DNA of 64,000 nucleotides from Candidatus Versatilivorator sp. (GTDB lineage Bacteria > Acidobacteriota > Terriglobia > Versatilivoradales > Versatilivoraceae), in contig OZ253547.1 in the NCBI GenBank assembly GCA_965262635.1, positions 3,644,234 to 3,708,233 of the forward strand. The letters run 5' to 3'. Both the position numbers and the translations under genes were made by a program. Numbering within the stretch: the first letter of the stretch is position 1; the number at the start of each line of letters is the position of its first letter. Positions 9,822 to 39,573 of this stretch are shown here, piece after piece. Under the pieces are notes generated by a model. The model was not told where the DNA came from. It worked only from the letters and a program-made list of their open reading frames with translations, and searched no databases.

Positions 9822-9858
9822 TAGCCCCCATTTCTCACCGGGGGGCGTGATCATGACA
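9822..9858. repeat. solo MITE terminus
   Basis: CCCCCATTTCTCACCGGGGGGCGTGATCATG; other solo termini at 13396-13420 and 39245-39265, and a very degenerate one at ~45641-45660. Confidence 0.55.
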
Positions 9859-9909
9859 CCGGCTTCTGCGGTGCGGTGCGGTCGGATCTGTCCGGGTTGA
9901 CTCCCTGCC

Positions 9910-11925
9910 CTATTTCAGCCGAGCCCCGTTGGGGACCTCCTCCAGAAAGGTTGCCAACACGGGTCTATCTTCCTCTCCGACCGACGCCGCCAGCAGCATT
10001 CCATTGGATTCCAGTCCCCGCAGCTTGCGCGGCTGGAGATTGGCCACCACCACGATCTTCTTTCCGACCAGACTCTCAGCGGGATAGGCCTGGGCAATTC
10101 CAGCCAGAATCTGACGGGTTTCACTACCCAGATCCACGGTCAGCCGCAAGAGGCGGTCGGCGCCCTTGACCTTGTCGGCCTCAACCACCTGGCCAACCCG
10201 AAGATCGACCTTGGCAAAGTCTTCAATGGTGATGGTGCTTCTACCAGTGGGTGCCGGGGACGAAGTCTCCGCGGGAGCCGGCGCCTTCCCCGGCTGGTCT
10301 CGGAGTGCCGGGGGACTTCCCTTTTTCCCCCTGTCAGCCGGCTTCTTTTGCCCCCTGCTACCGGAGTCAAAGAGCGTCTCCAAGAGAGCCTTCCTGTCCA
10401 GACGCGGGAAAACGGCCGTTATTTCGTCCAACCTGTTTCCCGCCAATTCCAGGCTCCATTGCAACCGGTCCAGGCGTTGACGGTTCAATGCTTCCTGCTG
10501 CCCCAACTGTTTCCAAATGTTCGCGCAACTGGCCGGTAGCACCGGAGTCAACAGGATGGTGACGATCCGGACCACTTCCGCGCAAGTGTGCAGGATTGTA
10601 GCCAGGCGGGGCCGCTGAGCCTCGTCCCCGGCCATGGTCCAGGGAGCACAGACATTGATGTATTTGTTGGTCCGGGAGAGCAGTTCCCAAATCGCCTCCA
10701 ACGCCCGGCTGAAGGCCAACCGGTCCATATGGCCTCGATAGGCCTCAATGGTCGCCAGGACATGTTCCTGCAGTTCGGTCTCCAGGGAGGAAGAAGATTG
10801 GGTGGAGGGGGCCGGAATGGTATTTCCGAAATTCCTGGAGATCAACGCCAGTGTCCGGGAAACCAGGTTGCCCCAATCGTTGGCAAGGTCGCTGTTGGTC
10901 CTTTGAATCATGGCCTGGTAGGAAAAGTTTCCATCGGCGCCAAAGGGGATCTCCCTCAACAGAAAATACCGCACCGCATCCGAACCGAAGTGATTGAGCA
11001 ACAGATGGGGATTGATCACGTTGCCGCGAGATTTGGACATCTTGGCTTCGTCCTTGAGCCACCAGCCGTGGGCATGGACCCGTTCAGGAAGCGGGAGGCC
11101 GGCTGCCAACAGAAAGGCCGGCCAATAGACGGTGTGAAAGCGAATGATGTCCTTTCCCACCAATTGAACCTGGGCCGGCCAGTACTTGCGGAACTGGTCC
11201 TGCTCCTGCTTGTTCCCGAATCCGATTCCCGAGAGGTAGCCCACCAGGGCGTCGAACCAGACATAGATGACGTGGTTTTCGGCCACGGGAACGGGAATGC
11301 CCCACTTGACAGAGGTGCGGCTGATGGAAAGGTCCTTGAGACCATCACTCACGAAGCGAATCACTTCGTTGCGACGAGAGGGTGGGTTGATGAACTCGGG
11401 ATGTTTTTGGTAGAGGTCCAGAAGATGCTTCTGAAAGGCAGACAGCTTGAAGAAGTAGCTCTCCTCGGTAACGCGCTCGGTGGGGCGTTGACAGACTTCA
11501 CAGTCGGGCGCCGCTTCAGCTTCCGGGGCAAACAGGTTGCAGGGAATGCAATACCAGCCGGAATACTCGCCCTTGTAAACGAAACCGTTGTCGAAGGCAC
11601 GCTGGAACACCTCGGTGGCCGCAGCGTAGTGACTCTTGCTGGTGGTGCGAATGAAACGGTCATACTCCACGCCGAACCGCGACCATAACTTGCGATAGGC
11701 CCCCGCATTCCGATCCGCCAGCACCTCCGGGGCGACACCATGGCTAGCGGCGGCCCGCTCGATGTTCTGGCCGTGCTCGTCGGTGCCGGTGAGAAAGCAC
11801 ACATCGTAGCCTTGCATTCTCTTGTAGCGGCTCAGGCAATCGGCCACCAGGGTGGTGTAGGTGTGTCCCAGGTGCGGCCGGGCATTCACGTAGTAGAGAG
11901 GGGTGGTGATGTAGAAGGTGTCCAT
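9910..11925 (-). CDS. metG: methionine--tRNA ligase with C-terminal EMAP-like tRNA-binding domain
   Basis: HLGH (YYVNARPHLGHTYT) and KMSKS (KMSKSRGN) class-I motifs; C-terminal tRNA-binding domain; 671 aa. Confidence 0.9.
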   Translation of the reverse strand: MDTFYITTPLYYVNARPHLGHTYTTLVADCLSRYKRMQGYDVCFLTGTDEHGQNIERAAASHGVAPEVLADRNAGAYRKLWSRFGVEYDRFIRTTSKSHYAAATEVFQRAFDNGFVYKGEYSGWYCIPCNLFAPEAEAAPDCEVCQRPTERVTEESYFFKLSAFQKHLLDLYQKHPEFINPPSRRNEVIRFVSDGLKDLSISRTSVKWGIPVPVAENHVIYVWFDALVGYLSGIGFGNKQEQDQFRKYWPAQVQLVGKDIIRFHTVYWPAFLLAAGLPLPERVHAHGWWLKDEAKMSKSRGNVINPHLLLNHFGSDAVRYFLLREIPFGADGNFSYQAMIQRTNSDLANDWGNLVSRTLALISRNFGNTIPAPSTQSSSSLETELQEHVLATIEAYRGHMDRLAFSRALEAIWELLSRTNKYINVCAPWTMAGDEAQRPRLATILHTCAEVVRIVTILLTPVLPASCANIWKQLGQQEALNRQRLDRLQWSLELAGNRLDEITAVFPRLDRKALLETLFDSGSRGQKKPADRGKKGSPPALRDQPGKAPAPAETSSPAPTGRSTITIEDFAKVDLRVGQVVEADKVKGADRLLRLTVDLGSETRQILAGIAQAYPAESLVGKKIVVVANLQPRKLRGLESNGMLLAASVGEEDRPVLATFLEEVPNGARLK

Positions 11926-11961
11926 CGAATCTGCTCAGGTCGTGGCCTGCTGACGCCGTTC

Positions 11962-13185
11962 CTATCCCAACTGTTTGCCGTGTCGGCTCATGAATTCCTG
12001 AATCACCTGCAGATGCACCTGCTTGTAGGGCACCCGGTGCCGATGGGCCAGGGCCTTGCATTCCTCATACTCCGGAGAAAAACTCACGATTCGGCCATCC
12101 AGCCGCGCCACTTTCACGGACACTTTGCCCAGCGAACTTTCTACCGGCTCAACGGTTCTGTCCAACACTTTTCTATGGCATTGGTGATAACGCAGGCCCA
12201 GTGTGGTGGTCTCCTCAAAAAGCACCTTGCAGACCCCATCCAGGAGCTCCAACGGAAGCACAACGGTGAGGAGAACTCCCGGACGACTCTTTTTCATTTG
12301 GACCGGACAGGAAAACACGTCATGCACTCCCAGTTCAAACAGCTTCCCCTGCACATATCCAACAATCTGGGGGTTCATGTCATCGATGTTGGCCTCCAGA
12401 ACCAACACCCTGGAATCCGAGGAAGCTGCATCGGAATCGACCGGTTGGCCCCTCAACACCCGGAGCACATTGGGACCTTCCCGCAGATCACGGCTGCCGG
12501 CGCCATACCCGATTCCCTCCACTCGAAAGCCTGGCAACGCTCCAAAACTCCGACTGATGGTGGTCAGGATAGCCGCTCCCGTCGGTGTAACCAGCTCCCC
12601 CTCAATCTTGTTGGAGTATATGGGCAGTCCTTTGAGCAGCTCCGCCGTGGCCGGGGCGGGAACGGGCATGGTCCCGTGGGCGCAGTCTACCGTTCCCCAG
12701 CCCACATTGAGAGGCGAGGACAGACATTGGGGCACGCCCATCCAGTGCAATCCGACAAAGGCTCCGACAATATCGACGATGGCATCAACGGCGCCCACTT
12801 CGTGAAAGTGAACTTTTTCCACCGTGGTGCCATGAACCTTGGCCTCTGCTTCGGCGAGTCGGAGGAATGATTGGCAGGCGTTGTCTTGAACCCAGGGAGC
12901 AAGCGTGCTGCTGCGGATGATCTTCTCGATGGTCGAATAGTGTCGGTGGTGATGCTCTTCGCCGGTTTCCACATCGAATTTGGTCGCCAGCACCCCTGAC
13001 TTGTTGACCCGGGAAGATCTGAGACGGAAGTTCCTGACACTCAGCTTTTCCAGTTCGCCGGCGAGATATTCCAGCGGGAGTCCCAGGTCCAGCAACGCTC
13101 CCAGAATCATGTCTCCGCTGATTCCCGAGAAGCAGTCAAAATAAAGGGTGTCCCTGCGTTGAGTTCCCACCTGTTTCGCCTCCAC
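11962..13185 (-). CDS. larC: LarC-family nickel insertion protein (DUF111)
   Basis: N-terminal LYFDCFSGISGDM block characteristic of LarC/DUF111; ~400 aa. Confidence 0.7.
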   Translation of the reverse strand: MEAKQVGTQRRDTLYFDCFSGISGDMILGALLDLGLPLEYLAGELEKLSVRNFRLRSSRVNKSGVLATKFDVETGEEHHHRHYSTIEKIIRSSTLAPWVQDNACQSFLRLAEAEAKVHGTTVEKVHFHEVGAVDAIVDIVGAFVGLHWMGVPQCLSSPLNVGWGTVDCAHGTMPVPAPATAELLKGLPIYSNKIEGELVTPTGAAILTTISRSFGALPGFRVEGIGYGAGSRDLREGPNVLRVLRGQPVDSDAASSDSRVLVLEANIDDMNPQIVGYVQGKLFELGVHDVFSCPVQMKKSRPGVLLTVVLPLELLDGVCKVLFEETTTLGLRYHQCHRKVLDRTVEPVESSLGKVSVKVARLDGRIVSFSPEYEECKALAHRHRVPYKQVHLQVIQEFMSRHGKQLG

Positions 13186-13443
13186 GGAACTGTGTGAGCG
13201 CCCTTATCCGACCAGTCAACCTGTCGCACACACCATGACGCTGCCACACTCCGGGATGAAGGACTGGATTGGGGAGAGCAACCAGCGAGGCTGGGGACAA
13301 ATCACTGGCCTAAGATGAAGGAAACGGGCACCTTCCGGCTCATGCACAAGCCGATACTAGGCTCGGATTCGGCCTTTTGTCAAGGTGAACCCTAGCCCGA
13401 ATTTCTCACCGGGTCGCTGGATTCATTAATGAAAAGGAGTTAA

Positions 13444-13694
13444 CCCGCATTTCTCACCAGGACGCTGAGCATAAGGCAGAAAAGTGCTTGTCTTTAACAT
13501 CTTGCGGCGCTTTGTTTGGAGTCTTCAGGGTACGGACTGTGCTGGGCGCGCCCTGACTTGTCTTTTCCCCTTCAGCGCACACATGCTCCCTCGAATGGTG
13601 TTCCGGCTACGCCCTTCGGTCACGAGCACGCGCTGAGGGAAAAATGCCTGCGCCATTGTCACGCCCCCCGGCGAGAAATGCGGGCTGGCGGCTG
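13444..13694. repeat. MITE-like element copy (~250 bp) with 17-bp terminal inverted repeats
   Basis: CCCGCATTTCTCACCAGG ... CCGGCGAGAAATGCGGG; internal sequence is the reverse complement of copy 16858-17098; an additional solo terminus lies at 13396-13420. Confidence 0.75.
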
Positions 13695-13776
13695 GGGGGC
13701 ACCAGTGAAGCCTCAGACCCGGATTGCACGGGAAGGGTCCGTTTGGTATGGAAGCCCTTTCAGAGGGGTCCCACTC

Positions 13777-14964
13777 CTACTGCATGAATTGTACAAAGAC
13801 TTCGTTGGAAAACAGCCGCCCCCTGCGAGTCAGCTTCAAACGGTCTCCTTCGATTTCAATCAGCCGATCCTGAATCAGATGACCCAATTCCCTGCTGAAG
13901 CGCTCCAGCAGGTCAAACCCGAATATTCGGCGACACCGCGACAGGTCCAGGCCGGCATTCAGCCGCAACCCCAGAAACATCACCTCTTCGAGATGCTGCC
14001 TGGGAGTGACCTCGGACCGAAAGGCCGTCGCGGGCTCCCCCCTCTCCAGCAGATCGACATAGCGGTAGGGATCTCTCTCATTGCCCCACCGCATCCCCGC
14101 CCAGTAGGAATGGGCGCCGCACCCGAAGCCAATGAAAGGTTGATCTGTCCAATGCTTCAAGTTGTGGCGCGACTGGCGGTCCGGCTTGCAGAAGTTGGAG
14201 ATCTCATACTGCTCCCAGCCGGCGTTTCCCAACCAAACCACCGATTCCTCGTACCAATCGGCAACCAGGTCCTCATCAGGCAAGGAGTGATCGGGCAAGC
14301 GCTCTCCTTTCCCCAGATGAGCATCTTCGTGGATCTCCAAAAGATACAGGGAGAGGTGCTCCGGTGAGAGGGCGGCCACCTGCTGCAGGTTTTCCTGCCA
14401 ATCGTCTTCCGTCTGGTCCGGCAGGCCGGCAATCAGGTCCAAATTCAAGTTGTCGATCCCTTGCCGGCGGCAAAGCTCGATGGTTGAAACCGAGTCCAGC
14501 GCGCTGTGAGTGCGGCCGACCCTTTTCAGCAGGCGATTCTGGAACGTCTGGACCCCAAGGCTGATTCGATTGACACCTGCGTCCCGGTACCAGTCCAGTT
14601 TGTCAGCCGTCAAGGTGCCGGGATTCACTTCCAGGGTGAACTCCGGGACAGGAACGAGGGCGAAAGCAGTCCGAATCCAATCCAAGACTTGCCCTATCTC
14701 CTGCTCATTTACCAGAGAAGGGGTGCCACCCCCCAAAAATATGGTGTCGATCTCCCAATCGGAGACGGAATTTCCATCTGCACTCCATCTCTGCAGAAAC
14801 GCGGGCAGCGTTTCCATCTCCCGACGCAGCGCTCCGAAATAAGGCTTGATCAAACTCCCGGGAAACACCCCCGAAGCGCGATGGCAGTAGCTGCACTTTG
14901 ACAGACAAAAGGGAATATGAATGTACAGTCCTAGCCTGCATTTCTCACCGGGGGGCGTGATCAT
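13777..14964 (-). CDS. hemW: radical SAM HemW/HemN-like protein (heme chaperone / coproporphyrinogen III oxidase family)
   Basis: LYIHIPFCLSKCSYC radical-SAM motif followed by HemN-like C-terminal domain; the annotated N-terminus MITPPGEKCRLG is read from the terminus of a MITE-like repeat, so the true start is uncertain. Confidence 0.7.
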   Translation of the reverse strand: MITPPGEKCRLGLYIHIPFCLSKCSYCHRASGVFPGSLIKPYFGALRREMETLPAFLQRWSADGNSVSDWEIDTIFLGGGTPSLVNEQEIGQVLDWIRTAFALVPVPEFTLEVNPGTLTADKLDWYRDAGVNRISLGVQTFQNRLLKRVGRTHSALDSVSTIELCRRQGIDNLNLDLIAGLPDQTEDDWQENLQQVAALSPEHLSLYLLEIHEDAHLGKGERLPDHSLPDEDLVADWYEESVVWLGNAGWEQYEISNFCKPDRQSRHNLKHWTDQPFIGFGCGAHSYWAGMRWGNERDPYRYVDLLERGEPATAFRSEVTPRQHLEEVMFLGLRLNAGLDLSRCRRIFGFDLLERFSRELGHLIQDRLIEIEGDRLKLTRRGRLFSNEVFVQFMQ

Positions 14965-15175
14965 GGCGCAGTAAATTTTCCCTCAGCGCGTGCTCGCGAC
15001 CGAAGAGCGTAGCGGTCACTACATTCAAGGGAGCCTGTGCGCGCTGAGGGAAAAAGGACAAGCCAGGGCGCGCCCAGCACCGTGTGTAAGAGCAAGCCGT
15101 CACTACAGGACCAGTAACCTGGTGAGGATAAACTCTTTTTCATCATGTACGCAGCGACCCGGTGAGAAATGCGGG
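14935..15175. repeat. MITE-like element copy (~240 bp)
   Basis: CCTGCATTTCTCACCGGGGGGCGTGATCATGG ... CCGGTGAGAAATGCGGG; shares the internal GC-rich palindromic core with the 16858 copy. Confidence 0.75.
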
Positions 15176-15201
15176 CTCGGTCAAGCGACATCAGCCGACT
15201 C

Positions 15202-16827
15202 TTACAAATGGAGCAATTGGTGGTCCGGGTTGGAAAGGTCGATGGCGCCGTAAAGCTGTTCCAGAAATTCGGGCCCGTAGCGCGACAGAAAGTAGAAAAT
15301 GTTGATCTGACGCTCTTGGAGTCCCCTTGAGGGATAGAGCATCCTCAACAGGCTATCGACCTGCCGAGTCAGGATTTTCTGTTGGCGAGACTCCGCTCCC
15401 ACAAACTTGGCTCGAAGATTCTCCAGTTGATATTGGATTTTTTTGCGGGTGGTCCCCAATGCTCCAACCAGGGTGGGATCTACGGATTTCAAGGGTTCCT
15501 CCATGTCACCGAGGCGATTGGCGAATTCTCTTTCGAGCCGGTTGAACCTGGCACTGACCTCCTGGTTGACAGTACTCTCGACGATCTGTTTCAGCAGTGG
15601 CTGGCTCCCTTGAAACAGATCACCGAATTCAATCCGGTATTTGGCCATCAATTTTTGGATCTTTTTTTCAATCACCGTAATGCTGGCACGCGGAACGATC
15701 CGGGGCATGGCTCTCCCCAGGGCACTATAAAGCGGGGAGATCTGGGCATAGTAGGCGACCTCGGATGGACCGGCAATGTAGGCCAGCGTCGGAAGCAGGA
15801 AATCCTGCACAACGGGTCTGAAGAGCACGTTGGGACTCCATTGCTCCGGTGACTGCTCGATGACCGCCTGCAGATCGGGTAACACCGCGGTGTTCCCTTT
15901 CAGGGAAAAACCGTTGCTGGTCCCCACCACCCCCCTGCGTTTCCCCTCTTGCTCCCAAAAGAGAAAGCTTGTCTCTGCTTCCCCGCTGACTTGAGGGGGG
16001 TATCCGGCACGGGCCAACTGATGGTTGCGGCCTGTCAGGAGACGATCCAGTTGGAGCCAGTCCTCGGCGGCCTGTAGAAATAGCGGCTTGGCCACGTTCT
16101 TGAGAGTCGGATCCCGCGGATCCAGCAGGATGAGCCCGTACTCGGAAAAGAGGAAGGAAACGACTTCGGCGAACGCCTGCCCAAAGGTGTTCCCCTCCCG
16201 ATATACCTGCTTCAATCGGGCGGCCAGCACGGGCTTGAATTCAGAGTCCGGCAATGCCTGCAGGAACTGGCAAAGGTGGTCTTGGATCGAAGAGTCAAAG
16301 GGAATGGGACCGACCGGCAGTCGATTCTCCTCTGATTTTTGAGCGAATTGGACCGATCTCAGAGTCGAGTCAGCCGCCAAGATCCACGTTCGACAGACTT
16401 CCTCAAGGTCGTGGTCCTCGGTGGCCATCCAGAATACGGGAACGGCCTCCACGCCGCGGCGGCAATAGGACTCGGCCAGTTTGATCGCCGTCAGGGCCTT
16501 GTAAATCGTATAGGCCGGACCGGTATACAAACCAACCTGCTGGCCGGTTACCACCGCCCCGCATTGGTCGCCGGCCATGCGGTCCAGGTTCTCCATGGTC
16601 TTGGCGGAAGCGCCCCAAAGGCGATTCTGGCGCTTGAGGGTCTTCACCAGGGCCGCTCGATGGGCCAGACGCGGCGGAGACGGATTCGCTTCCGGCAATC
16701 GGGCAGCCTCAAGGGAGGACGCCCTTGGGAAGAAGGGCTGAACCTTCTCAGTATGGTAGAGATAATCCAACAGGAGGGCTGGCGTTTTCGGAATTTTCTC
16801 GAAACTCAAACCCACCGACGTAGCCAT
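15202..16827 (-). CDS. bshC: bacillithiol biosynthesis cysteine-adding enzyme BshC
   Basis: 541 aa; blocks VVTGQQVGLYTGPAYTIYK and FWMATEDHDLEEV, and C-terminal NIFYFLSRYGPEF, match B. subtilis BshC (YllA) blocks GQQAGLLTGPLYTIHK, FWVAGEDHDLDEI, NIMYYLNRYGPKF. Confidence 0.75.
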   Translation of the reverse strand: MATSVGLSFEKIPKTPALLLDYLYHTEKVQPFFPRASSLEAARLPEANPSPPRLAHRAALVKTLKRQNRLWGASAKTMENLDRMAGDQCGAVVTGQQVGLYTGPAYTIYKALTAIKLAESYCRRGVEAVPVFWMATEDHDLEEVCRTWILAADSTLRSVQFAQKSEENRLPVGPIPFDSSIQDHLCQFLQALPDSEFKPVLAARLKQVYREGNTFGQAFAEVVSFLFSEYGLILLDPRDPTLKNVAKPLFLQAAEDWLQLDRLLTGRNHQLARAGYPPQVSGEAETSFLFWEQEGKRRGVVGTSNGFSLKGNTAVLPDLQAVIEQSPEQWSPNVLFRPVVQDFLLPTLAYIAGPSEVAYYAQISPLYSALGRAMPRIVPRASITVIEKKIQKLMAKYRIEFGDLFQGSQPLLKQIVESTVNQEVSARFNRLEREFANRLGDMEEPLKSVDPTLVGALGTTRKKIQYQLENLRAKFVGAESRQQKILTRQVDSLLRMLYPSRGLQERQINIFYFLSRYGPEFLEQLYGAIDLSNPDHQLLHL

Positions 16828-16857
16828 GGTGTCTCCCCGTCAGTTGCGACTTGCCAG

Positions 16858-17220
16858 CCCGCATTTCTCACCGGGGGGCGCGATCATGGCGCAGGAATTT
16901 TTCCCTCAGCGCGTGCTCGCGAGCGAAGGGCGTAGCGGGGACACCATTCGAGCCAGCCTGTGCGCGCTGAGGGGAAAAGGACAAGCCAGGGCGCGCCCAG
17001 CGCAGTCTGTTCCCCGAAGACTCCAAACTAAGCGCCCCAAGATGTTAAAGATAAGCACTCTTCGACATTTTGCTCAGCGTCCTGGTGAGAAATGCGGGTT
17101 AGACAAGCCAGGGCGCGCCCAGCACCGTGTATAGCCGCAGGCCCTCAAAATAGGGCCAATAGCGTACTGACGATAAACAGTCTTTCATGATATATCCAGC
17201 GACCCGGTGAGAAATGCGGG
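16858..17220. repeat. tandem/nested MITE-like copies (full copy 16858-17098 plus partial 17099-17220)
   Basis: Three TIR occurrences (16858, 17081-17098, 17204-17220); second unit has only the right half. Confidence 0.7.
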
Positions 17221-18900
<1,680 letters not shown>

Positions 18901-18903
18901 CTA

Positions 18904-19704: not shown

Positions 19705-20059
19705 AACCTGATCAGAGTCTAACGATGAGAGGCCCCTGGATGAAACCGGGCCTTTGGAAGGGTCACCTGTATCTTTGTTGAAAATCGGGTGGAGATCAAG
19801 TCCTAAATTAGTTGGTCCCGCACCTTAGGGCGGATCGCCAGTCCCGCAACTCCTGCGGGCCCCTGCAGCCGAACCCGTTTCGAGGCAGAGACACCTCTGG
19901 CAAAATGGCCTCAGCCGTTGCCGGTAATCCTCTCGCGGATACCCGCCTGTCAGGGCTCTTCTGTCCTTTACTTTTCCCCAGGCTTGGGTCAAAATGTGGC
20001 CGGGTTTCACGCTGAGAGATAATACACTCGGAAGCTTTCATGAGCTGGAGCGGTGCTCT

Positions 20060-21046: not shown

Positions 21047-21050
21047 TCCG

Positions 21051-21992: not shown

Positions 21993-22024
21993 ACTTCCTG
22001 GTTTAGATTGTGTGAGATGATTCG

Positions 22025-22279: not shown

Positions 22280-22297
22280 CCGCTCGAACCCGGTAGC

Positions 22298-22850: not shown

Positions 22851-22980
22851 CCCGCATTTCTCACCGGGTCGCTGGAACCATGACTTGGATACATTATGAA
22901 AGACCGTTCAACTTTGATACCTTATTGGCCTTGTTTTGAGGGCATGCCGGTACAGACCGCACCCCGGTGAGAAATGCGGG
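22851..22980. repeat. short (~130 bp) MITE-like variant
   Basis: CCCGCATTTCTCACCGGGTCGCTGG ... CCGGTGAGAAATGCGGG; sub-terminal sequence matches the 17099-17220 partial copy in inverse orientation. Confidence 0.7.
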
Positions 22981-25180: not shown

Positions 25181-25224
25181 GGCCGCATCGCTGACCAATA
25201 GTAGGAAACGTCGCTCTCGATCCA

Positions 25225-25380
25225 CGCAATTGCACGAAGCACAAAAAGAAATCCACGAAGGGACACGAAGTCACACCAGGGGCACAAGATTGCAGAAGCA
25301 TTTTGCTGCTGCTTGTCGTTGAAGGAGGTCCATCTGTCTTCGTGTCTATTCGTGTCCATTCGTGGTTCGTCTTCATGAAC
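25225..25380. repeat. large imperfect inverted repeat built from CACGAAG/CTTCGTG heptamers
   Basis: Left arm has (G)ACACGAAG x3 (25233-25271); right arm has CTTCGTG/TTCGTG x4 (25339-25371); central part is also partly self-complementary; lies between the mutase small subunit and the vWA3 promoter. Confidence 0.5.
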
Positions 25381-25570
25381 GATCGGCCGTTTTTCCTCGA
25401 ATGATCCGCACACCAAGGCGGGGACCGGACTTGTCTGGAACACCCCTGTTTCATCCCGTATGATCCGCCGCGTCGAAGGGGACGGGGGGGCCACTAAAAC
25501 CGCACGCGGGTCAAGAACCCCGCGGAAGAACAGCAACCCTTTTTCAAACCCCACCATCGCAGTCGAAGGG

Positions 25571-28506: not shown

Positions 28507-28507
28507 T

Positions 28508-31900: not shown

Positions 31901-33513
31901 GCAGACTCCCCAAAACCTCCGAGGATGTCACTGCCTTCCTGGTGCGAGAATGGCTCGAATGCCTGGGACCGGCAACAGCGGCGGAACTGGCCGACCGACT
32001 CGGCCTGACCCGCCCGGTGGTCCAACTCGCCATGGTGACCCTGGAGGCCGGCGGCACCATTCTGCGGGGTCGTTTCCGCGCCAGTCCCGGTCTGCCCGCA
32101 CCGAACCATCCTCCTTCCTCTGCGGTCACAGCGATTTCAGACGCGTCCAGCGCAACAGGCTCCCTCTCCTCCGACCCTCCGGGTCCCGACACCGAGTGGT
32201 GCGAACGCAGGATCCTGGCAAGGATCCACCGCTTGACGCTCGGTCGGTTGCGGCGGGAAATCGAGCCGGCCGGCACCGCCGAATTCATCCGCTACCTGCT
32301 GCACTGGCAGCACCTGGAAGACGGAACTCAGCTCCATGGTCGAGAGGGTCTGCTGAAGGTTCTGCAACAACTGCAGGGTCTGGAGCTTCCGGCAACGGCC
32401 TGGGAGCGCGACATACTGCCCAAGAGGATTGTCGACTATCGACCCGAGGACCTGGAAGCCCTGTGTCTGTCCGGCATGGTGGCCTGGGGCCGGTTGAGAT
32501 TCTCTTCGCCCCCCTCATTGGACCGGGAGGGATCTTCAGTCGGAGCCATTCAGGGTCGGACCAAACCCGGTCGCTCGGCCCCTCTGGCCTTTTTCACACG
32601 ACAGGACTCCTCCTGGTTGCTGGAGTCGAGACCCCTCTGCATGGAAGAAATTCCAGGGTTGTCTCCGGCGGCTGTGGAGGTGGCCAACACCCTCCGCCAA
32701 TGGGGAGCCTGTTTCCTGGCAGACATTTCCAGAAGCACCGGGCGGCTGGCCGCGGAAGTCGAGGACGCTCTGTGGGAGTTGGTGAGCCGCGGTCTGGTCA
32801 CCGGAGACGGGATGGCCGGGCTGAGGGTTCTGTTGCTCCCGCATCAGAAGCGGCGCAGACCGGAGCACCGATTGAGAGTCATACGTGGAGGTAACGCCCC
32901 GGGTCGACTGCTGCCGCTGGGACGATGGTCGCTATTGCAGCCGCAGCGCCCCCACCTTCCGGACAATCTGCCCGGTGACCTGCCCCGACCGGACGAGCCC
33001 GGCCGCCGGATGGCGGCTCCCCGTCAGGATCCCGACGAATTCGCAAGCCGGATGGCCAACCAGCTTCTGCGCCGCTACGGCATCGTCATACGGGAGCTGT
33101 TGACCCGCGAAGCTCATGCACCCCGATGGAGAACCCTGCTGAGGGTTTACCGGAGGATGGAGGCTCGGGGTGAAATTCGCGGAGGGCGATTCGTGAGCGC
33201 CTTTGGGGGAGAACAGTTCGCCCTCCCCGAGGCAGTGGACACCCTGCGGGCGCTTCGGCGCGGTCGGACACCACAAAACGATACGGTGCTGGTCTCCGCG
33301 GCAGACCCCCTGAACCTGGCAGGGATCCTCACTCCCGGGGCTCGAGTGTCTTCTTATTCCCATCAGTGGATTGCCATCCGGGAGGGCCTGCCGGTTGAAG
33401 TGGGGGAACTGGGAGAGGTCCTGAGCCGACTGCAACCCAAGCGGCCTTCCGGCACCGAGCCCGTAAAGACCCGCTCAGGCCCTCGCTCTACCGGCAAGGG
33501 ACATCGGCCATGA
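28918..33513 (+). CDS. lhr: large ATP-dependent helicase Lhr (DEAD/DEAH box)
   Basis: 1531 aa; Walker A APTGSGKT, DEIH box (VIVDEIHAV), full-length Lhr architecture; ATG overlaps comEA-like stop (ATGA). Confidence 0.85.
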   Translation: MKTAIPPHSPLPRGFHPYLAQWFRQHFVAPSPAQKRGWGPVMAGRDTLIAAPTGSGKTLAAFLWSLNQLVRAALKGQLEDRTYVVYVSPLKALGNDIHKNLQVPMAEIGRIAQQQGEAPLGIRVAVRSGDTPNSERQSMLRRPPHILITTPESLYILLTAKGSRGYLAGAGTVIVDEIHAVAGDKRGSHLALSLERLDHLAGRRLQRIGLSATQKPVAAIASLLVGTPGLRPKGRVACSIVDVGHQRDLELSIAIPDLEFGPIATLELWEAVYERIATEVRAHRSTLVFVHTRRLAERVAHKLSQRLGEDQVATHHGSLSKESRLAAEQQLKSGGIAVVVATASLELGIDIGHVDLVCHIGAPRSIASLLQRIGRSGHGLDTIPKGLLFPLTRDELLQTAAAVRAVRAGELDRIHIPEKPLDILAQQMVATVASGEIAEQDLWELCRKAFPYRHLTPGEFAEVVEILSEGIATRRGRGSAYLHRDGVHHRLRPRRNASLAAITGGGAIPDTADYDVIQEPAGISVGRVNEDFAIESMAGDIFLLGNQSWRIRRVESGKLRVEDAQGAAPTIPFWLGEAPARTAELSGAVSELRHRVTERLGREPVSAVDWLSRECGLDRSGAEQLVAYITQTRAVLGEVPTQQTVVAERFFDESGGMQLVLHAPFGGRINRAWGLALRKRFCVSFNFELQAAATDDGVVISLGEQHSFPLQSVASMVRPDRTERDLIQAVLASPMFGNRWRWNATRFLALQRFQHGRRVPMPIQRMRAEDLLAAVFPAQLACQDNAPGPVEPVDHPLVNQTLHDCLHEPLDLEGFLEVLRRLESGEIGFVGRDTPAPSPMSHEILNANPYAFLDDAPLEERRARAVSLRRMETDPIQADPILDPEVVEGVVSELWPDIRDREELHDLLLNLVILPSDAVGSWQGFMNELIESGRAGKVAWTAPTGSRQQAYVAAERLAWLKRVVSDVGVDPAFERRFVDSGTGSSLLPATSLTTSRLPKTSEDVTAFLVREWLECLGPATAAELADRLGLTRPVVQLAMVTLEAGGTILRGRFRASPGLPAPNHPPSSAVTAISDASSATGSLSSDPPGPDTEWCERRILARIHRLTLGRLRREIEPAGTAEFIRYLLHWQHLEDGTQLHGREGLLKVLQQLQGLELPATAWERDILPKRIVDYRPEDLEALCLSGMVAWGRLRFSSPPSLDREGSSVGAIQGRTKPGRSAPLAFFTRQDSSWLLESRPLCMEEIPGLSPAAVEVANTLRQWGACFLADISRSTGRLAAEVEDALWELVSRGLVTGDGMAGLRVLLLPHQKRRRPEHRLRVIRGGNAPGRLLPLGRWSLLQPQRPHLPDNLPGDLPRPDEPGRRMAAPRQDPDEFASRMANQLLRRYGIVIRELLTREAHAPRWRTLLRVYRRMEARGEIRGGRFVSAFGGEQFALPEAVDTLRALRRGRTPQNDTVLVSAADPLNLAGILTPGARVSSYSHQWIAIREGLPVEVGELGEVLSRLQPKRPSGTEPVKTRSGPRSTGKGHRP

Positions 33514-34760
33514 CTCTATTCGAAACCACCGCCTTACTGGTCAGCCTGGCGGCCATTTTCGGCTACCTGAACCACCGCTTCGTAAGGCTGCCGACCACCA
33601 TCGGACTCATGTCGTTTTCGCTGCTGCTATCCCTGGTTCTGGTTCTTGGGGACCTGGTGGGCTGGGACTGGGGGCGTGAGGCCGCGCGAATCGTTGAAGG
33701 CATTGATTTCAATCAGACCCTCATGCAGGGAATGCTGAGCTTCCTTCTCTTCGCCGGGGCTCTGCACCTCAACCTGGAAGATCTGATGCAGCACAAGTGG
33801 ACCATCGGCGTGCTGGCAACCCTGGGGGTGGCCATGTCCACCCTGCTGGTGGGCGGTCTCATGGCCGCGGTTCTGGAATGGACCGGTACCCCCTTGCCCC
33901 TGATCTACTGCTTTGTGCTGGGCGCCATCGTCTCGCCTACCGATCCCATCGCCGTCATGAGCCTGCTCAAACAGGCCAAGGCGCCCCGGGCATTGGAAAC
34001 CAAGATCGCCGGGGAATCCCTCTTTAATGACGGCGTCGGGATCGTCCTCTTTCTGGTTCTGTATCAAATATCCATGGACCAACAGTCCTTCCGCTTTCTA
34101 GACGCCGCCGGCCTGCTTTTGCGGGAAGCTGCCGGTGGCACCTTGTTGGGATTGGCCTTGGGCTGGGTCACCTACTCCCTCCTCAAAACCATTGACAATT
34201 ACCAGATCGAAGTGCTGCTCACCCTGGCCTTCGTGACCGGAGGCTACAGCCTGGCCTCCAGCCTCCATCTGTCCGGGCCGCTGGCAGTCGTGGCCGGGGG
34301 TCTGTTGATTGGAAACCAGGGACGGCATTTTGCCATGACCGATACCACTCGCCGCCACCTGGACACTTTCTGGGAGTTGGTCGACGAAATCCTCAATGCC
34401 ATCCTGTTCGTGCTGATCGGCCTTGAAATCCTGGTCCTGACTTTCCGTCTCGATTTTCTGCTGGCCGGGGCATTGACCATCCCGGTGGTGCTCCTGGCGC
34501 GGTTGATCAGCGTGGGCATTCCCGTGAGCCTGTTCCGCCTGCGGAAGGAATTCAGCCCGCACGTGGTCAAGATTCTCACCTGGGGAGGCTTGCGCGGGGG
34601 CATCTCGGTGGCCCTGGCGCTTTCCCTGCCCGAGAGTCCTCAACGGGAGCTGATTCTGGTCCTGACCTACGGGGTGGTGGTGTTCTCCATTCTGGTCCAG
34701 GGACTCACCCTCCCCACCCTGCTGCGCAAAATGCTCCCCCCGGAGGTCTCGGCAGGTTAA
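33510..34760 (+). CDS. Na+/H+ antiporter, CPA1 (NhaP) family
   Basis: 12-13 TM segments, CPA1 motif region (SPTDPIAVMSLL); ATG overlaps lhr stop (ATGA). Confidence 0.8.
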   Translation: MTLFETTALLVSLAAIFGYLNHRFVRLPTTIGLMSFSLLLSLVLVLGDLVGWDWGREAARIVEGIDFNQTLMQGMLSFLLFAGALHLNLEDLMQHKWTIGVLATLGVAMSTLLVGGLMAAVLEWTGTPLPLIYCFVLGAIVSPTDPIAVMSLLKQAKAPRALETKIAGESLFNDGVGIVLFLVLYQISMDQQSFRFLDAAGLLLREAAGGTLLGLALGWVTYSLLKTIDNYQIEVLLTLAFVTGGYSLASSLHLSGPLAVVAGGLLIGNQGRHFAMTDTTRRHLDTFWELVDEILNAILFVLIGLEILVLTFRLDFLLAGALTIPVVLLARLISVGIPVSLFRLRKEFSPHVVKILTWGGLRGGISVALALSLPESPQRELILVLTYGVVVFSILVQGLTLPTLLRKMLPPEVSAG

Positions 34761-34800
34761 CCCACAAGTCTTGCCGGGTGGCTGGGTACAGGACGAAAAA

Positions 34801-34920
34801 GTGCTTGTCTTCGGCATCCTGGAGGGCCTGGTTTGGAGCCCTCAGGCCCCGACCGTGCTGGGCGCGCCCTGGTCGGTCTTCTCCTCTTTCCACACCAGTG
34901 CAGCCCCCGGTGAGAATGCG
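34801..34920. repeat. degenerate MITE-like fragment
   Basis: Internal core GTGCTTGTCTT...CTGGGCGCGCCCTGG shared with other copies; one degenerate terminus CCCCCGGTGAGAATGCG. Confidence 0.55.
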
Positions 34921-35095
34921 TAGGAACCGTCCTTGCCGGCGATCCGGTGCTACATTGGAAACGGTTCTTGGGGTTCGCCAACCCGGCCGAACCGCACTCG
35001 GTCCACAGGACAAAAATGTTGAAACCAGCCGCCAGAGGCCAGCGTTGTTAAGTTTGATCTCGTGGCGGCCAAGCATCCTGGAAAGGTAAAAATCC

Positions 35096-36892
35096 ATGAC
35101 ACTGCAACGTAAGCCGGTTCTCCTGGTCGTCGGGATTCTCATCCTGACAGTTCTGGGCTTCTTGGTGTGGGGAGAGGGGGAGGTCGACCCCGCCGAAAAG
35201 TACCTGAAGGTTGAAGTACAACGTGGCGATGTCCGGAGAACCGTTACCTCGACCGGAACGCTCCAAGCAGTAGTCACCGTTCAGGTCGGCAGTCAGGTCT
35301 CCGGCCGCATCCAGGAATTGCATGCGGATTTCAACAGTGTGGTCAAGAAAGGACAAACCCTGGCCATCATCGACCCCGCCAACTTCGAGGCCCAGCGGGA
35401 TCGTGCCGCCGCTTCCCTGGCCACGGCGGAAGCCTCGGTCAAGAACGCGGAGGCCAATCTGGTCAACCGCCAAGCCGAACTCCTGAGCTCCAAGGCCAAT
35501 CTTCTGGTGGCACGGGTGGACCATCAGGAAGCGGGCCGGCAACTGCGAAGAGCCAAAGGACTGTTTGAGGACGGTCTGATTCCCGAGCGGGACCTGGAAA
35601 CGGCCCAAGCCGGCGTGGACCAATCCGCCGCACGGCTGCAACAGGCCGAGGCTCAGATCAGCCAAATCAAGGCGTCCATTCGATCCGCAGCCGCTCAAAA
35701 AGAACAGGTTCAGGCCAACGTCAAACAGGCCAAGGCCGAACTGAAGATGGCTCAGATAAACCTTTATTATACGAACATCATCTCTCCCATTGACGGGGTG
35801 GTGATCGAACGCAACGTGGACATCGGCCAAACGGTGGCAGCCAGCTTCCAGGCACCGATCTTGTTCCTGATCGCCAACGATCTGGCGAAAATGCAGGTGA
35901 TTGCTCAAATCGATGAGGCCGACATCGGAGCCATTTCCGAACAGGCCGAGGTGGGATTCACGGTTGACGCTTTCCCCGGACAAAACTTTCAGGGGAAAAT
36001 CTCCGAGATTCGTCTCAGTTCCAAGCTGCCGGGCTCGAGCAGCACCGGCGCCCAGCAGGCCGGCGGGTCCACCAACGTGGTGGTTTACAACGTCATGATC
36101 GACGTCGACAACCTCCAGTTGAAGCTGCGGCCCGCCATGACGGCCACCGTCAACTTCACCGTGGCCAGCGCGGAGGATGTCCTGAAGGTCGCCAACGTCG
36201 CTCTGCGATTCCAACCGTCAGACAAGAGCCCCGAGGAGATTCGAGCAATGCTCCGAGACGGCGAACCCGTACCCGGGGATGACTCGGCCGAATCCCGCCG
36301 CCCCGATGGCCCGGCGGCCCAAGCGGACACCGGTGGACAGCGAGGCAAGGACCCGGAACGGATGCAAGCCATGAGAGCGCGACTAGCTCAGTCGGGCGGG
36401 GGCAGGTCCGCAGGAGGGCGCGGTATGGATCCTGAGCGGATGCGCGCCATGAGGGCGCGGATGGCCCGGTCGGGTGGAGGTGGACCCTTGGGGGGCGGAG
36501 GGAGAGGTCGCCCGGGAGCGGGACGGAGCAGACCAGCCGGCTCCGGCGCCGAGACCGTCATTGCACCCTCTAACACGACCCAGTATGGCATCAGTCCCGG
36601 CTTGAAGATTCGATTTCCTCAGGCAGAGAAGATCCGATCTCGAACCGGCCTGTTGTGGGTACTCGATTCGGAGGGTCATCCGGAGCCTCGGCGAGTCCGC
36701 TTCGGTATCACGGACGGCCGGGAGACGGCCGTTCTCAACGGGGATCTCGAGGAAGGAGAACAAGTCGTTAGCGGGGAGCTGGCCACCGAGGTCAGAGCCA
36801 GCAGTACATCCTCTCCCTTCGGCAGCCTGTTCGGTAGACGGCGTGCGCCCCAACGAAGTCAGCAGCGAAGTCAGAGAAGCGGGGGCCGCTAG
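35096..36892 (+). CDS. HlyD/MacA-type periplasmic adaptor subunit with Arg/Gly-rich repeat C-terminal tail
   Basis: N-terminal TM anchor, lipoyl/beta-barrel adaptor blocks, long coiled coil; about the last 200 aa are low-complexity with a tandem repeat (DPERMQAMRARLAQSGGGRS / DPERMRAMRARMARSGGGG). Confidence 0.75.
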   Translation: MTLQRKPVLLVVGILILTVLGFLVWGEGEVDPAEKYLKVEVQRGDVRRTVTSTGTLQAVVTVQVGSQVSGRIQELHADFNSVVKKGQTLAIIDPANFEAQRDRAAASLATAEASVKNAEANLVNRQAELLSSKANLLVARVDHQEAGRQLRRAKGLFEDGLIPERDLETAQAGVDQSAARLQQAEAQISQIKASIRSAAAQKEQVQANVKQAKAELKMAQINLYYTNIISPIDGVVIERNVDIGQTVAASFQAPILFLIANDLAKMQVIAQIDEADIGAISEQAEVGFTVDAFPGQNFQGKISEIRLSSKLPGSSSTGAQQAGGSTNVVVYNVMIDVDNLQLKLRPAMTATVNFTVASAEDVLKVANVALRFQPSDKSPEEIRAMLRDGEPVPGDDSAESRRPDGPAAQADTGGQRGKDPERMQAMRARLAQSGGGRSAGGRGMDPERMRAMRARMARSGGGGPLGGGGRGRPGAGRSRPAGSGAETVIAPSNTTQYGISPGLKIRFPQAEKIRSRTGLLWVLDSEGHPEPRRVRFGITDGRETAVLNGDLEEGEQVVSGELATEVRASSTSSPFGSLFGRRRAPQRSQQRSQRSGGR

Positions 36893-36895
36893 TCC

Positions 36896-37636
36896 ATGCA
36901 AAATCTCATCAACCCTGTTGCGGAAGGTGCGTCTTCACCGGACCTGGATCCGGCCGCCGTGATCGCATTGCAGGATGTGTGGAAGATTTACGATACGGGA
37001 GAGATTCGGGTGGAGGCAATGCGAGGGGTTTCCCTCGAGATTGCTCGCGGGGAATTCGTGGCCATTATGGGAGCCTCGGGGTCGGGAAAGTCCACCATGC
37101 TGAATATTCTGGGCTGCCTGGATCATCCCACCCGCGGTGTCTATCGCCTGGACGGTATTGACGTCTCCACCTTTTCCCCCTCCCAAAGAGCCGATATTCG
37201 CAATCAGAACATCGGTTTCATCTTCCAGACCTTCAATCTGTTGAGCCGGACCTCCGTCTGGGAAAACGTGGAAGCCCCCATGCTCTATTCCGGGACGTCG
37301 AAGGCCGAGCGCACCCGGCGCATCGAGCAGGCCTTGAGCGTGGTCGGACTTTCTGAAAAAGCCAAGGCGTTGCCCAATCAGCTATCGGGAGGACAGCAAC
37401 AAAGAGTGGCTGCAGCCCGGGCTCTGGTCAACCAACCCTCCATCCTTCTGGCCGATGAACCCACGGGCAATTTGGACTCGGTCACTTCGAAAGAGATCAT
37501 GACCTTTCTCCAGAGCCTGAACTCTGAGAAAGGGATCACCTTGGTCATGGTCACTCACGAACAGGAGATCGCCGGCTACGCATCACGACAAATACACATG
37601 AGGGACGGTCAGATCCTGAGGGACGTGAGGACCTGA
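36896..37636 (+). CDS. ABC transporter ATP-binding protein (MacB/LolD-like)
   Basis: Walker A GASGSGKST, ABC signature LSGGQQQR, Walker B ILLADEPT; 4 nt after the adaptor gene. Confidence 0.85.
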   Translation: MQNLINPVAEGASSPDLDPAAVIALQDVWKIYDTGEIRVEAMRGVSLEIARGEFVAIMGASGSGKSTMLNILGCLDHPTRGVYRLDGIDVSTFSPSQRADIRNQNIGFIFQTFNLLSRTSVWENVEAPMLYSGTSKAERTRRIEQALSVVGLSEKAKALPNQLSGGQQQRVAAARALVNQPSILLADEPTGNLDSVTSKEIMTFLQSLNSEKGITLVMVTHEQEIAGYASRQIHMRDGQILRDVRT

Positions 37637-37694
37637 CGGCACGCTCACAGGGTGTCGGCCCAGGTGGAACACAGTCCATAACCGGAGTACTGAA

Positions 37695-38915
37695 ATGAAC
37701 TACTGGATGATCCTGAAAATATCGCTCAAGGCCCTGAGCCGGAACAAAATTCGCTCGGCTTTGACCATGCTGGGAATCATCATCGGCATAGCAGCAGTGA
37801 TTGCCATGGTGAGTCTCGGCCAGGGTGCGCAGCGCCAGATTCAGGAAGAAATCGCCAGCCTGGGCGACAACACCGTTTGGGTGAGGGCGGGCAGTCGCCG
37901 TTCCTGGGGGGTCCGGAGTGCCTCCGGAACGATGAACACTCTGAAAGCCACCGACTTCGAGGCCATGTTGAGCGAGTGCCCTGCGGTCAAGGCGGTCAGT
38001 CCCAGCTCCAGGTCGATGGCCCAGGTGGTGTTTGGAAACCAGAACTGGAATACCCGGATCGAGGGATATAACGAGCTGTATCCGGAAATGCGAAACTGGA
38101 CCATTTCCCAGGGCAGCTTCTTCGACAATAGTCACGTCAAGGCAGCCGCCCGGGTGGCCGTGCTGGGCAACACCGTTTGGACGGAACTGTTTTCCGGCAG
38201 CGATCCGGTTGGACAAACCATCCGGGTCAAGAACCTGTCTTTTCAGGTGGTCGGAGTGTTCAAGGCAAAGGGGTACAACTCCTGGGGCCGCGATCAGGAT
38301 GATATCATCATCGTACCCTACACCACCGTGCAGAAGAAGTTCCTGGGGGGAGCGCTCCATGTCGAGTCCGGATTGGTCCAGGCTGTCAATGCCAGGGCAA
38401 CCTATGCCGCCGAAGAACAGATCAGGGCGCTGCTCCGCCAGCGGCACCGCCTGGGGCCTTTCCAGGACGACGATTTCATGGTGCGCAACCTCAGCGAAAT
38501 CGGAGAAGCTGCGGAATCAACCAACCGAATGATGGGTTTGTTGTTGAGCGGCATTGCCGCCATTTCGCTGCTTGTGGGCGGAATCGGCATCATGAACATC
38601 ATGCTGGTGGCCGTCTCGGAGCGAACCCGAGAAATCGGTATCCGGATGGCCATCGGCGCCCGACCGAGTCATGTGCGCGTTCAGTTCCTCTCGGAATCGA
38701 TCGTCCTATGCCTGGTGGGTGGCATCCTGGGTCTACTGGCAGGAGTGGGTATCTCTTGGGCAATCGCTCAATTGGTCGGCTGGCCCACGATAGTCTCGCT
38801 CGATTCCGTCGCCATCTCCATGCTCTTCTCCGCGTCCATCGGAATTTTCTTCGGCTACTACCCCGCCCACAAAGCGGCCGCTTTGGATCCCATAGAAGCC
38901 CTTCGCTACGAGTAG
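37695..38915 (+). CDS. ABC transporter permease, MacB/FtsX family
   Basis: N-terminal TM, large periplasmic domain, C-terminal FtsX-type 3-TM bundle; 406 aa. Confidence 0.8.
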   Translation: MNYWMILKISLKALSRNKIRSALTMLGIIIGIAAVIAMVSLGQGAQRQIQEEIASLGDNTVWVRAGSRRSWGVRSASGTMNTLKATDFEAMLSECPAVKAVSPSSRSMAQVVFGNQNWNTRIEGYNELYPEMRNWTISQGSFFDNSHVKAAARVAVLGNTVWTELFSGSDPVGQTIRVKNLSFQVVGVFKAKGYNSWGRDQDDIIIVPYTTVQKKFLGGALHVESGLVQAVNARATYAAEEQIRALLRQRHRLGPFQDDDFMVRNLSEIGEAAESTNRMMGLLLSGIAAISLLVGGIGIMNIMLVAVSERTREIGIRMAIGARPSHVRVQFLSESIVLCLVGGILGLLAGVGISWAIAQLVGWPTIVSLDSVAISMLFSASIGIFFGYYPAHKAAALDPIEALRYE

Positions 38916-38959
38916 TTCCAGCGATTCGGCCGGATGCCGGGGCACGGGATTTTTGAATG

Positions 38960-39190
38960 ATAGTCCCCCGGGCGCCAGCCCGGGGTTCGAGTAAGCCGCG
39001 CATGCGGCGGCAGCAGGGTGCCGTGGGCGTGAGCCCATGGAATCAGGAAACCGCATTCCCCGAGCCGCGTAGGCGGCGGCAATCATCCCTGGTGTTTGAT
39101 CTCAAACCAGCTCGGGCGCCAGCCCGGGGTTCGAGCCAAGCCGCAAAGCGGCGTCCGCATAGTGCCGTGGGCGTGAGCCGGGCGCAGGCC
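38960..39190. repeat. tandem REP-like GC-rich palindromic repeats (related partial copy at 45487-45560)
   Basis: Two units GGGCGCCAGCCCGGGGTTCGAG..AAGCCGC[palindrome]TGCCGTGGGCGTGAGCC at 38963-39037 and 39114-39183; the 45487-45560 copy shares GGGCGTGAGCC and AGCCGCGTAGGCGGCGG. Confidence 0.6.
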
Positions 39191-39264
39191 ATTGGAATGC
39201 TGCAAGATGCTGAAGAAAAACACTTTCCCAGCCGATGCCCAGCTCCCCCGGTGAGAAATGCAGG

Positions 39265-39573
39265 CTAGAGATTCTCGAAAAAGCGGTGGTCGGTAACGTA
39301 GGTAAATCCGTCGGGGATCTCCCGAATGTAGAGTTCAGCCTTGAGCGCCTGGACGCATCCATCGACCAGGACTTCGTCCAGGGGCCGTTGCTTGTCCTTG
39401 GCCTTTTGGTTGGCTTTCTCCCAGGCAAGTTGGGTCAATTTGAAAATACCGTTGCAAGTGGTTCGTCCGTTGTGGACCTTCCCGGCACACATATGAAAGT
39501 TTCCCTCGGCCTCCGCCGAGCTTTCCATCGATAGGGAGTAACGCTTCTCTAAAAATTGAAATTCCTTTTTCAT
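39265..39573 (-). CDS. hypothetical protein
   Basis: 103 aa ORF from MKKEFQFLEKRY with RBS-like sequence upstream; 3 Cys; no family recognised; stop lies inside a solo MITE terminus. Confidence 0.3.
   Translation of the reverse strand: MKKEFQFLEKRYSLSMESSAEAEGNFHMCAGKVHNGRTTCNGIFKLTQLAWEKANQKAKDKQRPLDEVLVDGCVQALKAELYIREIPDGFTYVTDHRFFENL

Follow-up and report, generated by a model that had tools for sequence, protein, structure and literature searches.

MITE-like elements with IS1380-family ends in Candidatus Versatilivorator, one of them inserted at the start of hemW

Insertion sequences of the IS1380 family are best known through ISEcp1 and its mobilization of blaCTX-M, and as bacterial relatives of piggyBac; according to ISfinder, their ends start with CC and they duplicate 4-5 bp of target. 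One member, IS1247, makes a 5-bp duplication (PMC3281130), and the transposases of others, such as ISEcp1 and ISPme1, misrecognize ends and move adjacent DNA (PMC9330008, PMC3281130). The classical miniature inverted-repeat transposable elements (MITEs) of bacteria, e.g. Correia of Neisseria, RUP, ERIC and the Tn3-derived TIMEs (PMC4133298), have IS630-like or Tn3 parents and duplicate TA or 5-6 bp. Here we analyze a family of short repeats in a 64,000-nucleotide stretch, called the window below, of the genome of Candidatus Versatilivorator sp. (contig OZ253547.1, positions 3,644,234 to 3,708,233). The copies encode no protein and are bounded by a terminal inverted repeat of 14-17 bp, CCCGCATTTCTCAC(CGG). 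They are very probably non-autonomous DNA transposons, i.e. MITEs, derived from IS1380-family insertion sequences.

The window copies place IS1380-type ends on very small bodies. Their ends start with CCCGC and their duplications are 4 bp, which fits the end and target features of the family, and they share the core CCCGCATTTCTCAC with the group of IS1380A of Acetobacter pasteurianus (whose own end is diverged) and its plasmid relatives in Rhizobium, Bradyrhizobium and Pseudomonas; unlike these insertion sequences, they are 39-241 bp long, carry no transposase gene and have nothing internal in common with them. ISEcp1 and ISPme1 modules are alike in their transposase family, and in that end misrecognition makes new units with IS1380-type ends, but they are kilobases long and consist of an insertion sequence with captured genes, whereas the window units are tiny and have two good ends. 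Similarity to piggyBac and its MITEs in eukaryotes extends to ends beginning with CCC, a palindromic tetranucleotide target with central TA and a 4-bp duplication, consistent with the use of IS1380 as the prokaryotic outgroup of piggyBac (PMC10813416); piggyBac targets TTAA, however, whereas here the hosts are bacteria and CTAG is preferred over TTAA. Classical bacterial MITEs share the small size, terminal repeats, hairpin potential, position at gene boundaries, mosaic and deletion derivatives and capacity for co-transcription with neighbors, but differ in parent (here IS1380) and in duplication (here 4-bp YTAR).

A search for the 17-mer CCCGCATTTCTCACCGG on both strands of the window, allowing up to three mismatches, returned 14 matches, compared with a mean of 0.46 and a maximum of 3 in 100 shuffles, so the repeat family first noticed from the sequence alone is real. 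It also extends beyond the window. A scan of 185,579 species genomes for the exact 17-mer found at least 106 stretches, which together with the window contain 60 inverted pairs less than 600 bp apart. The pairs fall into discrete size classes of 56, 120, 140, 159, 176, 213, 241 and ~265 bp and larger, reaching 444 bp in other genomes. We compared the four bases outside both ends of 59 pairs, with the same comparison shifted by four bases as a control. The flanks are identical in 27 of the 59 pairs and differ by a single base in 19 more, against 1 of 59 identical in the control. The identical flanks are CTAG (18), TTAA (5), TTAG (2), CTAA (1) and CTGG (1). Since TTAG, CTAA and CTGG are not palindromic, the duplication must be 4 bp (YTAR) and not TA. 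Target-site duplications therefore do accompany the copies, and MITEs of the IS630/Tc1-mariner type, e.g. Correia, were rejected because a TA duplication is incompatible with such flanks. Exact unpaired ends have a YTAR flank in 29 of 59 cases and many others are one base off, so most solo ends are true relics. No YTAR flanks the lone exact matches in Paenibacillus and Dehalococcoidia, which may be due to chance (about 70 exact matches are expected by chance in 596 Gb, 2 x 596e9 / 4^17) and were not counted as evidence of distribution. Viral contigs yielded only two exact 17-mer matches, and phage carriage is thus no feature of the family.

The IS5 group, too, duplicates 4 bp at YTAR, and these flanks would equally suit MITEs derived from the IS5 family. 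Such a parentage is very unlikely, because the same ends and CTAG bound at least seven elements of 1.64-1.66 kb that have a single open reading frame, for an IS1380-family transposase (PF13701, NF033539); no IS5-type transposase was seen adjoining any end, the ends not having been compared with IS5 ends. The original prediction had supposed a genome-encoded transposase acting in trans; these full-length insertion sequences, found in other genomes, represent an autonomous type of partner with the same terminal repeat. The element of Lichenifustis flavocetrariae (L080) is 1639 bp long, lies between two CTAG tetramers and has the 17-mer at one end and an imperfect inverted copy of it at the other. 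Its 464-codon frame (deposited protein P0121, 460 aa) matches PF13701 at 501 bits and the NCBIfam model NF033539, 'IS1380 family transposase', at 399.8 bits; the product is 56% identical to the IS1380A transposase and 61-73% identical to those of plasmid copies in Bradyrhizobium, Rhizobium and Pseudomonas putida. These plasmid copies and the metagenomic loci L124-L126 measure 1.64-1.66 kb, have the ends CCCGCATTT(C/T)TCAC... and are flanked by CTAG, as is every close relative checked. IS1380A itself (1665 bp) differs from them in a related but diverged end, CGCGGAAATCTCACAGA, and a 4-bp TCAA duplication. The terminal repeat is thus the canonical end of an IS1380 subgroup. Among 5.8 billion proteins, the best 120 matches to the transposase are all close relatives, on contigs of ~1.6-2 kb.

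Two other candidate partners were rejected. Pairs of ends 0.9-3 kb apart enclose, besides the true insertion sequences, host genes lying between two copies (DnaB, HemN and 2-oxoglutarate dehydrogenase, read by eye). A UPF0236-family (ISLre2-like) frame adjoins a solo MITE end in two Versatilivoraceae genomes (L052 49-1724 and L100 2889-4551), in opposite orientations relative to that end, and may belong to an unrelated insertion sequence that inserted into a copy or next to one.

The copies in the window were catalogued by sequence reading, a repeat finder and sensitive BLAST of copies against the window. In four elements, three 241 bp long and one 130 bp, the two ends are intact and the 17-bp terminal repeats carry 0-1 mismatch; the remainder are one degenerate 158-bp copy and about seven end fragments, including a half element, and the whole set spans 5.8-45.7 kb, a density of about 11 per 40 kb. 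L112 below is a strain, and L122 a sister lineage.

5786-5802, plus strand: solo terminal-repeat relic CCCGCATATCTCACCCG, 2 mismatches, outer flank ATAG; kept at the orthologous place in L112 and L122.
9825-9863, plus strand: left-end fragment of 39 bp, made up of the terminal repeat and the GGGGGGCGTGATCATG module, with CTAG on its outer side; between a VTT-domain gene and metG.
13396-13443, minus strand: 48-bp right-module end fragment, outer flank CTAG; immediately upstream of a promoter-like site of larC.
13444-13684, minus strand: copy A, 241 bp, both ends, flanks TTAA / CTGG; hemW-larC spacer.
14935-15175, plus strand: copy B, 241 bp, both ends, flanks CTAG / CTCG; between bshC and hemW.
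16858-17098, plus strand: copy C, 241 bp, both ends, flanks CCAG / TTAG; pyrG-bshC spacer.
17099-17220, plus strand: copy E, 122-bp right half of a second copy abutting C, right terminal repeat intact; the CTA that flanks it on the outside (17221-17223) is, read on the minus strand, the TAG stop codon of pyrG.
22851-22980, minus strand: copy D, 130-bp deletion derivative; between dtd and a methylmalonyl-CoA mutase gene.
25181-25200, plus strand: degenerate relic of a solo end, immediately preceded by a CTAG in which a B12-binding-domain gene has its stop codon; better kept in L112 (GCCGCATTTCTCACCAA).
34761-34918, minus strand: degenerate 158-bp copy, both ends, left flank TTAA containing the TAA stop (34758-34760) of a Na+/H+ exchanger gene.
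39183-39264, minus strand: 82-bp end fragment, terminal repeat with 1 mismatch, outer flank CTAG; its end at 39264 adjoins the last codon of an unsupported open reading frame, 39265-39687 (no Pfam match).
~45635-45656, minus strand: solo relic CCCCCCGGTGGGAAATATCG|TTAG, weak and uncertain, its 17-mer having 5 mismatches; missed by BLAST.

The coordinates first proposed hold to within a few to tens of bases, with corrections at 9822 (now 9825-9863), 13444-13694 (now ending at 13684) and 34801-34920 (now 34761-34918); the copy placed at ~45641 is only the weak relic above, and that at 25181-25200 had been missed. A match at 16558-16574 (3 mismatches) lies inside bshC and is kept as coding sequence in relatives, and was discarded as chance. 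Neighboring genes are housekeeping genes: tatD, metG, larC, hemW, bshC, pyrG, kdsB, dtd, methylmalonyl-CoA mutase, the Na+/H+ exchanger and macB. Three ends abut stop codons carried by the target, those of pyrG, the exchanger gene and the B12-binding-domain gene. Both hemW (13444-15175) and bshC (14935-17098) are bracketed by two copies in the manner of a composite transposon; synteny is conserved in relatives, and there is thus no sign that these units move. For reference, window 5202-26827 is 100% identical to the 214-kb ENA contig ERZ25068833 ctg57701_4x_l, and window 1-2452 is 96% identical to a metagenome-assembled genome (MAG) of Candidatus Versatilivorator sp. (CBDAOQ010000003.1; Acidobacteriota, Terriglobia).

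Insertion is best seen where relatives differ. Starting from the window's HemW protein, we reached syntenic loci of three close lineages (hemW dS among lineages 0.13-0.17), in which occupancy is as follows.

bshC-hemW: copy B in the window, CGAG ... CTAG in gene direction (CTAG/CTCG on the plus strand); copy B in L122, CGAG ... CTGG; empty in L121, with a single CTAG (ATGTCTCTTGGGCTAGGACTA).
pyrG-bshC: E and C in the window, 363 bp; in L122 one 139-bp copy in the opposite orientation, a few bases away; in L121 a 35-bp spacer.
hemW-larC: A and a fragment in the window, 289 bp; absent from L122 and L121.
dtd-mutase: D in the window, 130 bp; in L122 a copy of 149 bp; in L121 a solo end of 18 bp.
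GFO_IDH-ApbE: absent from the window; a 126-bp copy in L122, flanks TAAA/TTAA; not covered in L121.

The 18-bp solo end of L121 is the product of a deletion between two CCCG tetramers (microhomology). At the empty pyrG-bshC site of L121 (8329-8345), the stop codon is followed by CCTGCAT, which matches six of the seven first bases of the terminal repeat, a match that may be due to chance or be what a deletion left of an older copy. In L123, a strain of the L122 lineage, the hemW-larC spacer (8860-9040) holds a half element that has only one terminal repeat and lies between direct duplicates of 20 bp, ACCTTGACAAAAGGCCGAAT. A standard event would have duplicated 4 bp; one-ended transposition or repair could account for the difference.

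These sites also bear on whether the copies are transposons at all. The intergenic positions, hairpins, both orientations, tandem and mosaic arrangements and lack of a transposase in the window resemble repetitive extragenic palindromes (REP) and bacterial interspersed mosaic elements (BIME), in which case the copies would have spread through a REP-associated tyrosine (Y1) transposase (RAYT) or recombination and not by cut-and-paste. REP sequences make no duplications, whereas here 4-bp duplications are clear and empty sites hold a single YTAR; moreover, REP/BIME units are 20-40 nt, compared with units of 120-241 bp whose 17-bp terminal repeats are identical to insertion sequence ends. A REP origin is accordingly extremely unlikely; no search was aimed at a RAYT gene. 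The original prediction had held that copies confined to the window, missing target-site duplications or a missing autonomous partner would favor a REP-type repeat, and on all three counts the result came out for the MITE.

That prediction also argued for recent transposition, which is only partly borne out. Sister lineages do differ at several sites, but insertion polymorphism is absent from nine contigs of other samples that are 99.3-99.7% identical to the window, every copy being in the same place. Moreover, paralogous copies are only 73-91% identical, compared with 94% for the orthologous B copies of the window and L122. The site differences between lineages, together with the sharing among strains, indicate that the family was active on the time-scale of species divergence, with no sign of current activity. 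The sole difference among copies in the nine contigs is a 73-bp indel at the center of copy B. This insertion (GTTTATGTTGTGATAG...AAGTCGGC; L112 11813-11885, window ~15016-15029) lies in the loop, lengthens copy B from 241 to 314 bp in 99.5%-identical strains and lacks YTAR flanks.

Several observations weigh against an IS1380 origin or against transposition in this lineage, the absence of polymorphism among strains being one. The window's own duplications are degenerate (CTAG/CTCG, CCAG/TTAG, TTAA/CTGG). tblastn with the IS1380 transposase finds none in the 64-kb window, nor in any examined Ca. Versatilivorator or Versatilivoraceae locus; over the window and all loci it matches only L080, L010 and L069, with a weak unrelated match in L056. 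The full-length partners all come from Alphaproteobacteria, Pseudomonas plasmids or unassigned metagenome contigs. Small elements and full-length insertion sequences have no sequence in common beyond the terminal repeat, which leaves descent by internal deletion unsupported. Nor did full-text searches of the literature, which did not extend to ISfinder, yield anything for comparison: neither the terminal-repeat string nor a description of IS1380-derived MITEs was found, and 'Versatilivorator' gave no paper. With no tblastn match to a transposase of this type (DDE_Tnp_1_4 / NF033539) in the window, its copies are derivatives and not insertion sequences.

We propose that an IS1380-type DDE transposase, supplied in trans, binds both ends and moves the element, which would insert at YTAR (CTAG first, followed by TTAA/TTAG/CTAA), where a cut staggered by 4 bp would produce the duplication. 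The anatomy, the duplications, the empty and filled sites and the match of the ends to IS1380-family ends are observed; the reaction and a transposase source in this lineage are inferred. In this genome of ~59% G+C, the YTAR tetramers (CTAG, TTAA, TTAG, CTAA) are the rarest in the window, at 23-30 occurrences each compared with a median of 247 for all tetramers. Many of them carry stop codons, which would account for the pile-up of copies at gene ends. Copies would then decay through internal microhomology deletions into 130-149-bp forms, half elements and solo ends. Common left modules are joined to three different right modules. By analogy with ISEcp1 and ISPme1, end misrecognition is a plausible source of the mosaics and half elements, and the L123 half element with its 20-bp duplication suggests one-ended events.

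Copy B has altered a conserved gene, the heme chaperone gene hemW. It is called at window 13777-14964 on the minus strand, and its product begins MITPPGEKCRLGLYIHIPFC. The present ATG (14962-14964, minus strand) lies 28-30 nt inside copy B, so on this call the element encodes the first ten residues of the protein, PPGEKC being read from the terminal repeat. Element-free HemW orthologs (P0002, P0004-P0025) start MS[LIN][DGE]LGLYIHIPFC and have the usual length of 387-389 aa. When the flanks of copy B are joined, they read ATG TCG CTT GAC CTA GGA CTG TAC, or MSLDLGLY; the restored start places the insertion point of copy B in the fifth codon of hemW (window 14962-15192, minus strand; L121 9981-10040; L122 9754-10040). 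The view that all copies are intergenic thus needs a single correction, since copy B sits within the ancestral 5' coding end of hemW. Reading from the ancestral ATG (15190-15192, minus strand) now gives a 76-codon frame through copy B, whose TGA stop, in the window and L122, overlaps the new start as ATGA; where strains carry the 73-bp insert, this frame ends ~60 nt sooner. From this arrangement in the sequence, hemW would be translated from the ATG of the element, and may be translationally coupled to the upstream frame. dN/dS is 0.29 between the two element-bearing lineages and 0.23-0.26 against element-free L121, values that indicate continued purifying selection on hemW. All relatives have F at HemW residue 29 (window 14878-14880), which follows the CxxxCxxC-H motif, whereas the 99.5%-identical strains have C and the window R (TTC>TGC>CGC); constraint at this residue may be relaxed, or the 4x-coverage contig may be in error.

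The internal anatomy of the copies is modular. Ten 241-bp copies align readily and are 82-94% identical over the left 150 nt, whereas the right 75 nt belong to three unrelated module types (46-97% identical). The left part contains a conserved hairpin of ~80 nt followed by the palindrome CCAGGGCGCGCCCAGC, in agreement with the GC-rich palindromic core first described, and the alignment also shows conserved pairing of the terminal repeats. When folded, the elements form long hairpins in which the two ends make the closing stem (RNA -106.6 kcal/mol, z = -6.0; DNA z = -5.8). Forms of 126-149 bp lack the hairpin through deletions, which by eye lie between short GGCGC repeats. Neither Rfam models, run over the whole window, nor a tRNA search gave a match, and both a tRNA-derived repeat and a known structured RNA were dropped as candidates.

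Such conservation raises the question of whether the left half, with its hairpin and GC palindrome, has been retained for the host in elements that are MITEs by origin, so that their density would reflect domestication and not only target preference; it could serve in transcript stabilization, attenuation or translational control of the flanking housekeeping operons. The higher identity of the left half would fit this, as would the retention of the ~80-nt hairpin with a CG<->UA exchange in four of ten copies and two other double changes, although that covariation could be a single change inherited within a subfamily. Copies B and C contain a terminator-like stem and T-run, but the promoter and terminator scan did not exceed shuffles (terminator-like count 7 vs 5.1). 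Copy B lies within the bshC-hemW operon and supplies the hemW start; copies occur, however, in both orientations relative to neighboring genes, and the hairpin-less derivatives (126-149 bp) persist and were themselves inserted. Retention for a host function is therefore unlikely, and we retain the reading of the copies as IS1380-derived MITEs accumulating at YTAR.

Paired copies with duplications occur in genomes labeled, as MAGs, Gammaproteobacteria and Alphaproteobacteria, four classes of Acidobacteriota, Planctomycetota and Nitrospirota, among others. Internal sequences group by host lineage: the window type clusters only with Versatilivorator loci, BLAST additionally matching it to a Terriglobia chromosome (L012), and gammaproteobacterial MAGs carry internal types of their own. 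We give about equal weight to either side of the broader proposal that one IS1380-type repeat seeded lineage-specific MITE families in several phyla, and that here one copy was exapted, splitting hemW at codon 5, supplying its start and ten residues and allowing expression by ATGA translational coupling; a published description of this was not found. A cluster of 176-247-bp elements with similar interiors (L003, L036, L070, L077, L031 and others) comes from MAGs labeled Thiohalobacter, Gammaproteobacteria Ww575, Nitrospira and Actinomycetota, and reflects either horizontal spread or mis-binned short contigs.

These data provide abundant repeats of uncultured Acidobacteriota and many environmental genomes with a parent family (IS1380) and a target rule (YTAR), and extend the known repertoire of the IS1380 family to MITE production. 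Many contigs end in the terminal repeat, so the repeats break short-read assemblies, and the element can be used for annotation masking and as a strain- or species-level marker. The mechanism is conventional; the breadth of the repeat across phyla and the rebuilt hemW start, a clean natural case of a MITE remaking the 5' end of a conserved gene, are the noteworthy parts.

Other repeats were seen in the same sequences. A 67-nt GC-rich interspersed family (CGGGCGCCAGCCCGGGGTTCGAG...GTGGGCGTGAGCC) has tandem copies at window 38969-39035 and 39113-39179, next to the 39183-39264 fragment, and no fewer than six copies within a single 1.7-kb region of a Versatilivorator MAG (L029 2960-4618); window 45480-45600 resembles it by eye, with no BLAST link. 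A dispersed repeat rich in CACGAAG / TTCGTG occurs at window 25230-25430, at L086 611-704, 1353-1446 and 2094-2187, and in L096 and L105, and strains differ in this region by a ~153-bp indel (window 25223-25523 vs L112 1458-1604). A 67-bp repeat at window 5859-5925 and 43994-44060 is 99% identical between its copies, forms a CTCCCCCC-TTGA-GGGGGGAG hairpin and has an 81%-identical copy in L121. Finally, a 71-bp repeat at 61613-61683 and 62484-62554 (90% identical) has 28-nt palindromic arms (62485-62551) and belongs to the part of the window with lower GC (52-57% G+C at 54-58 kb).

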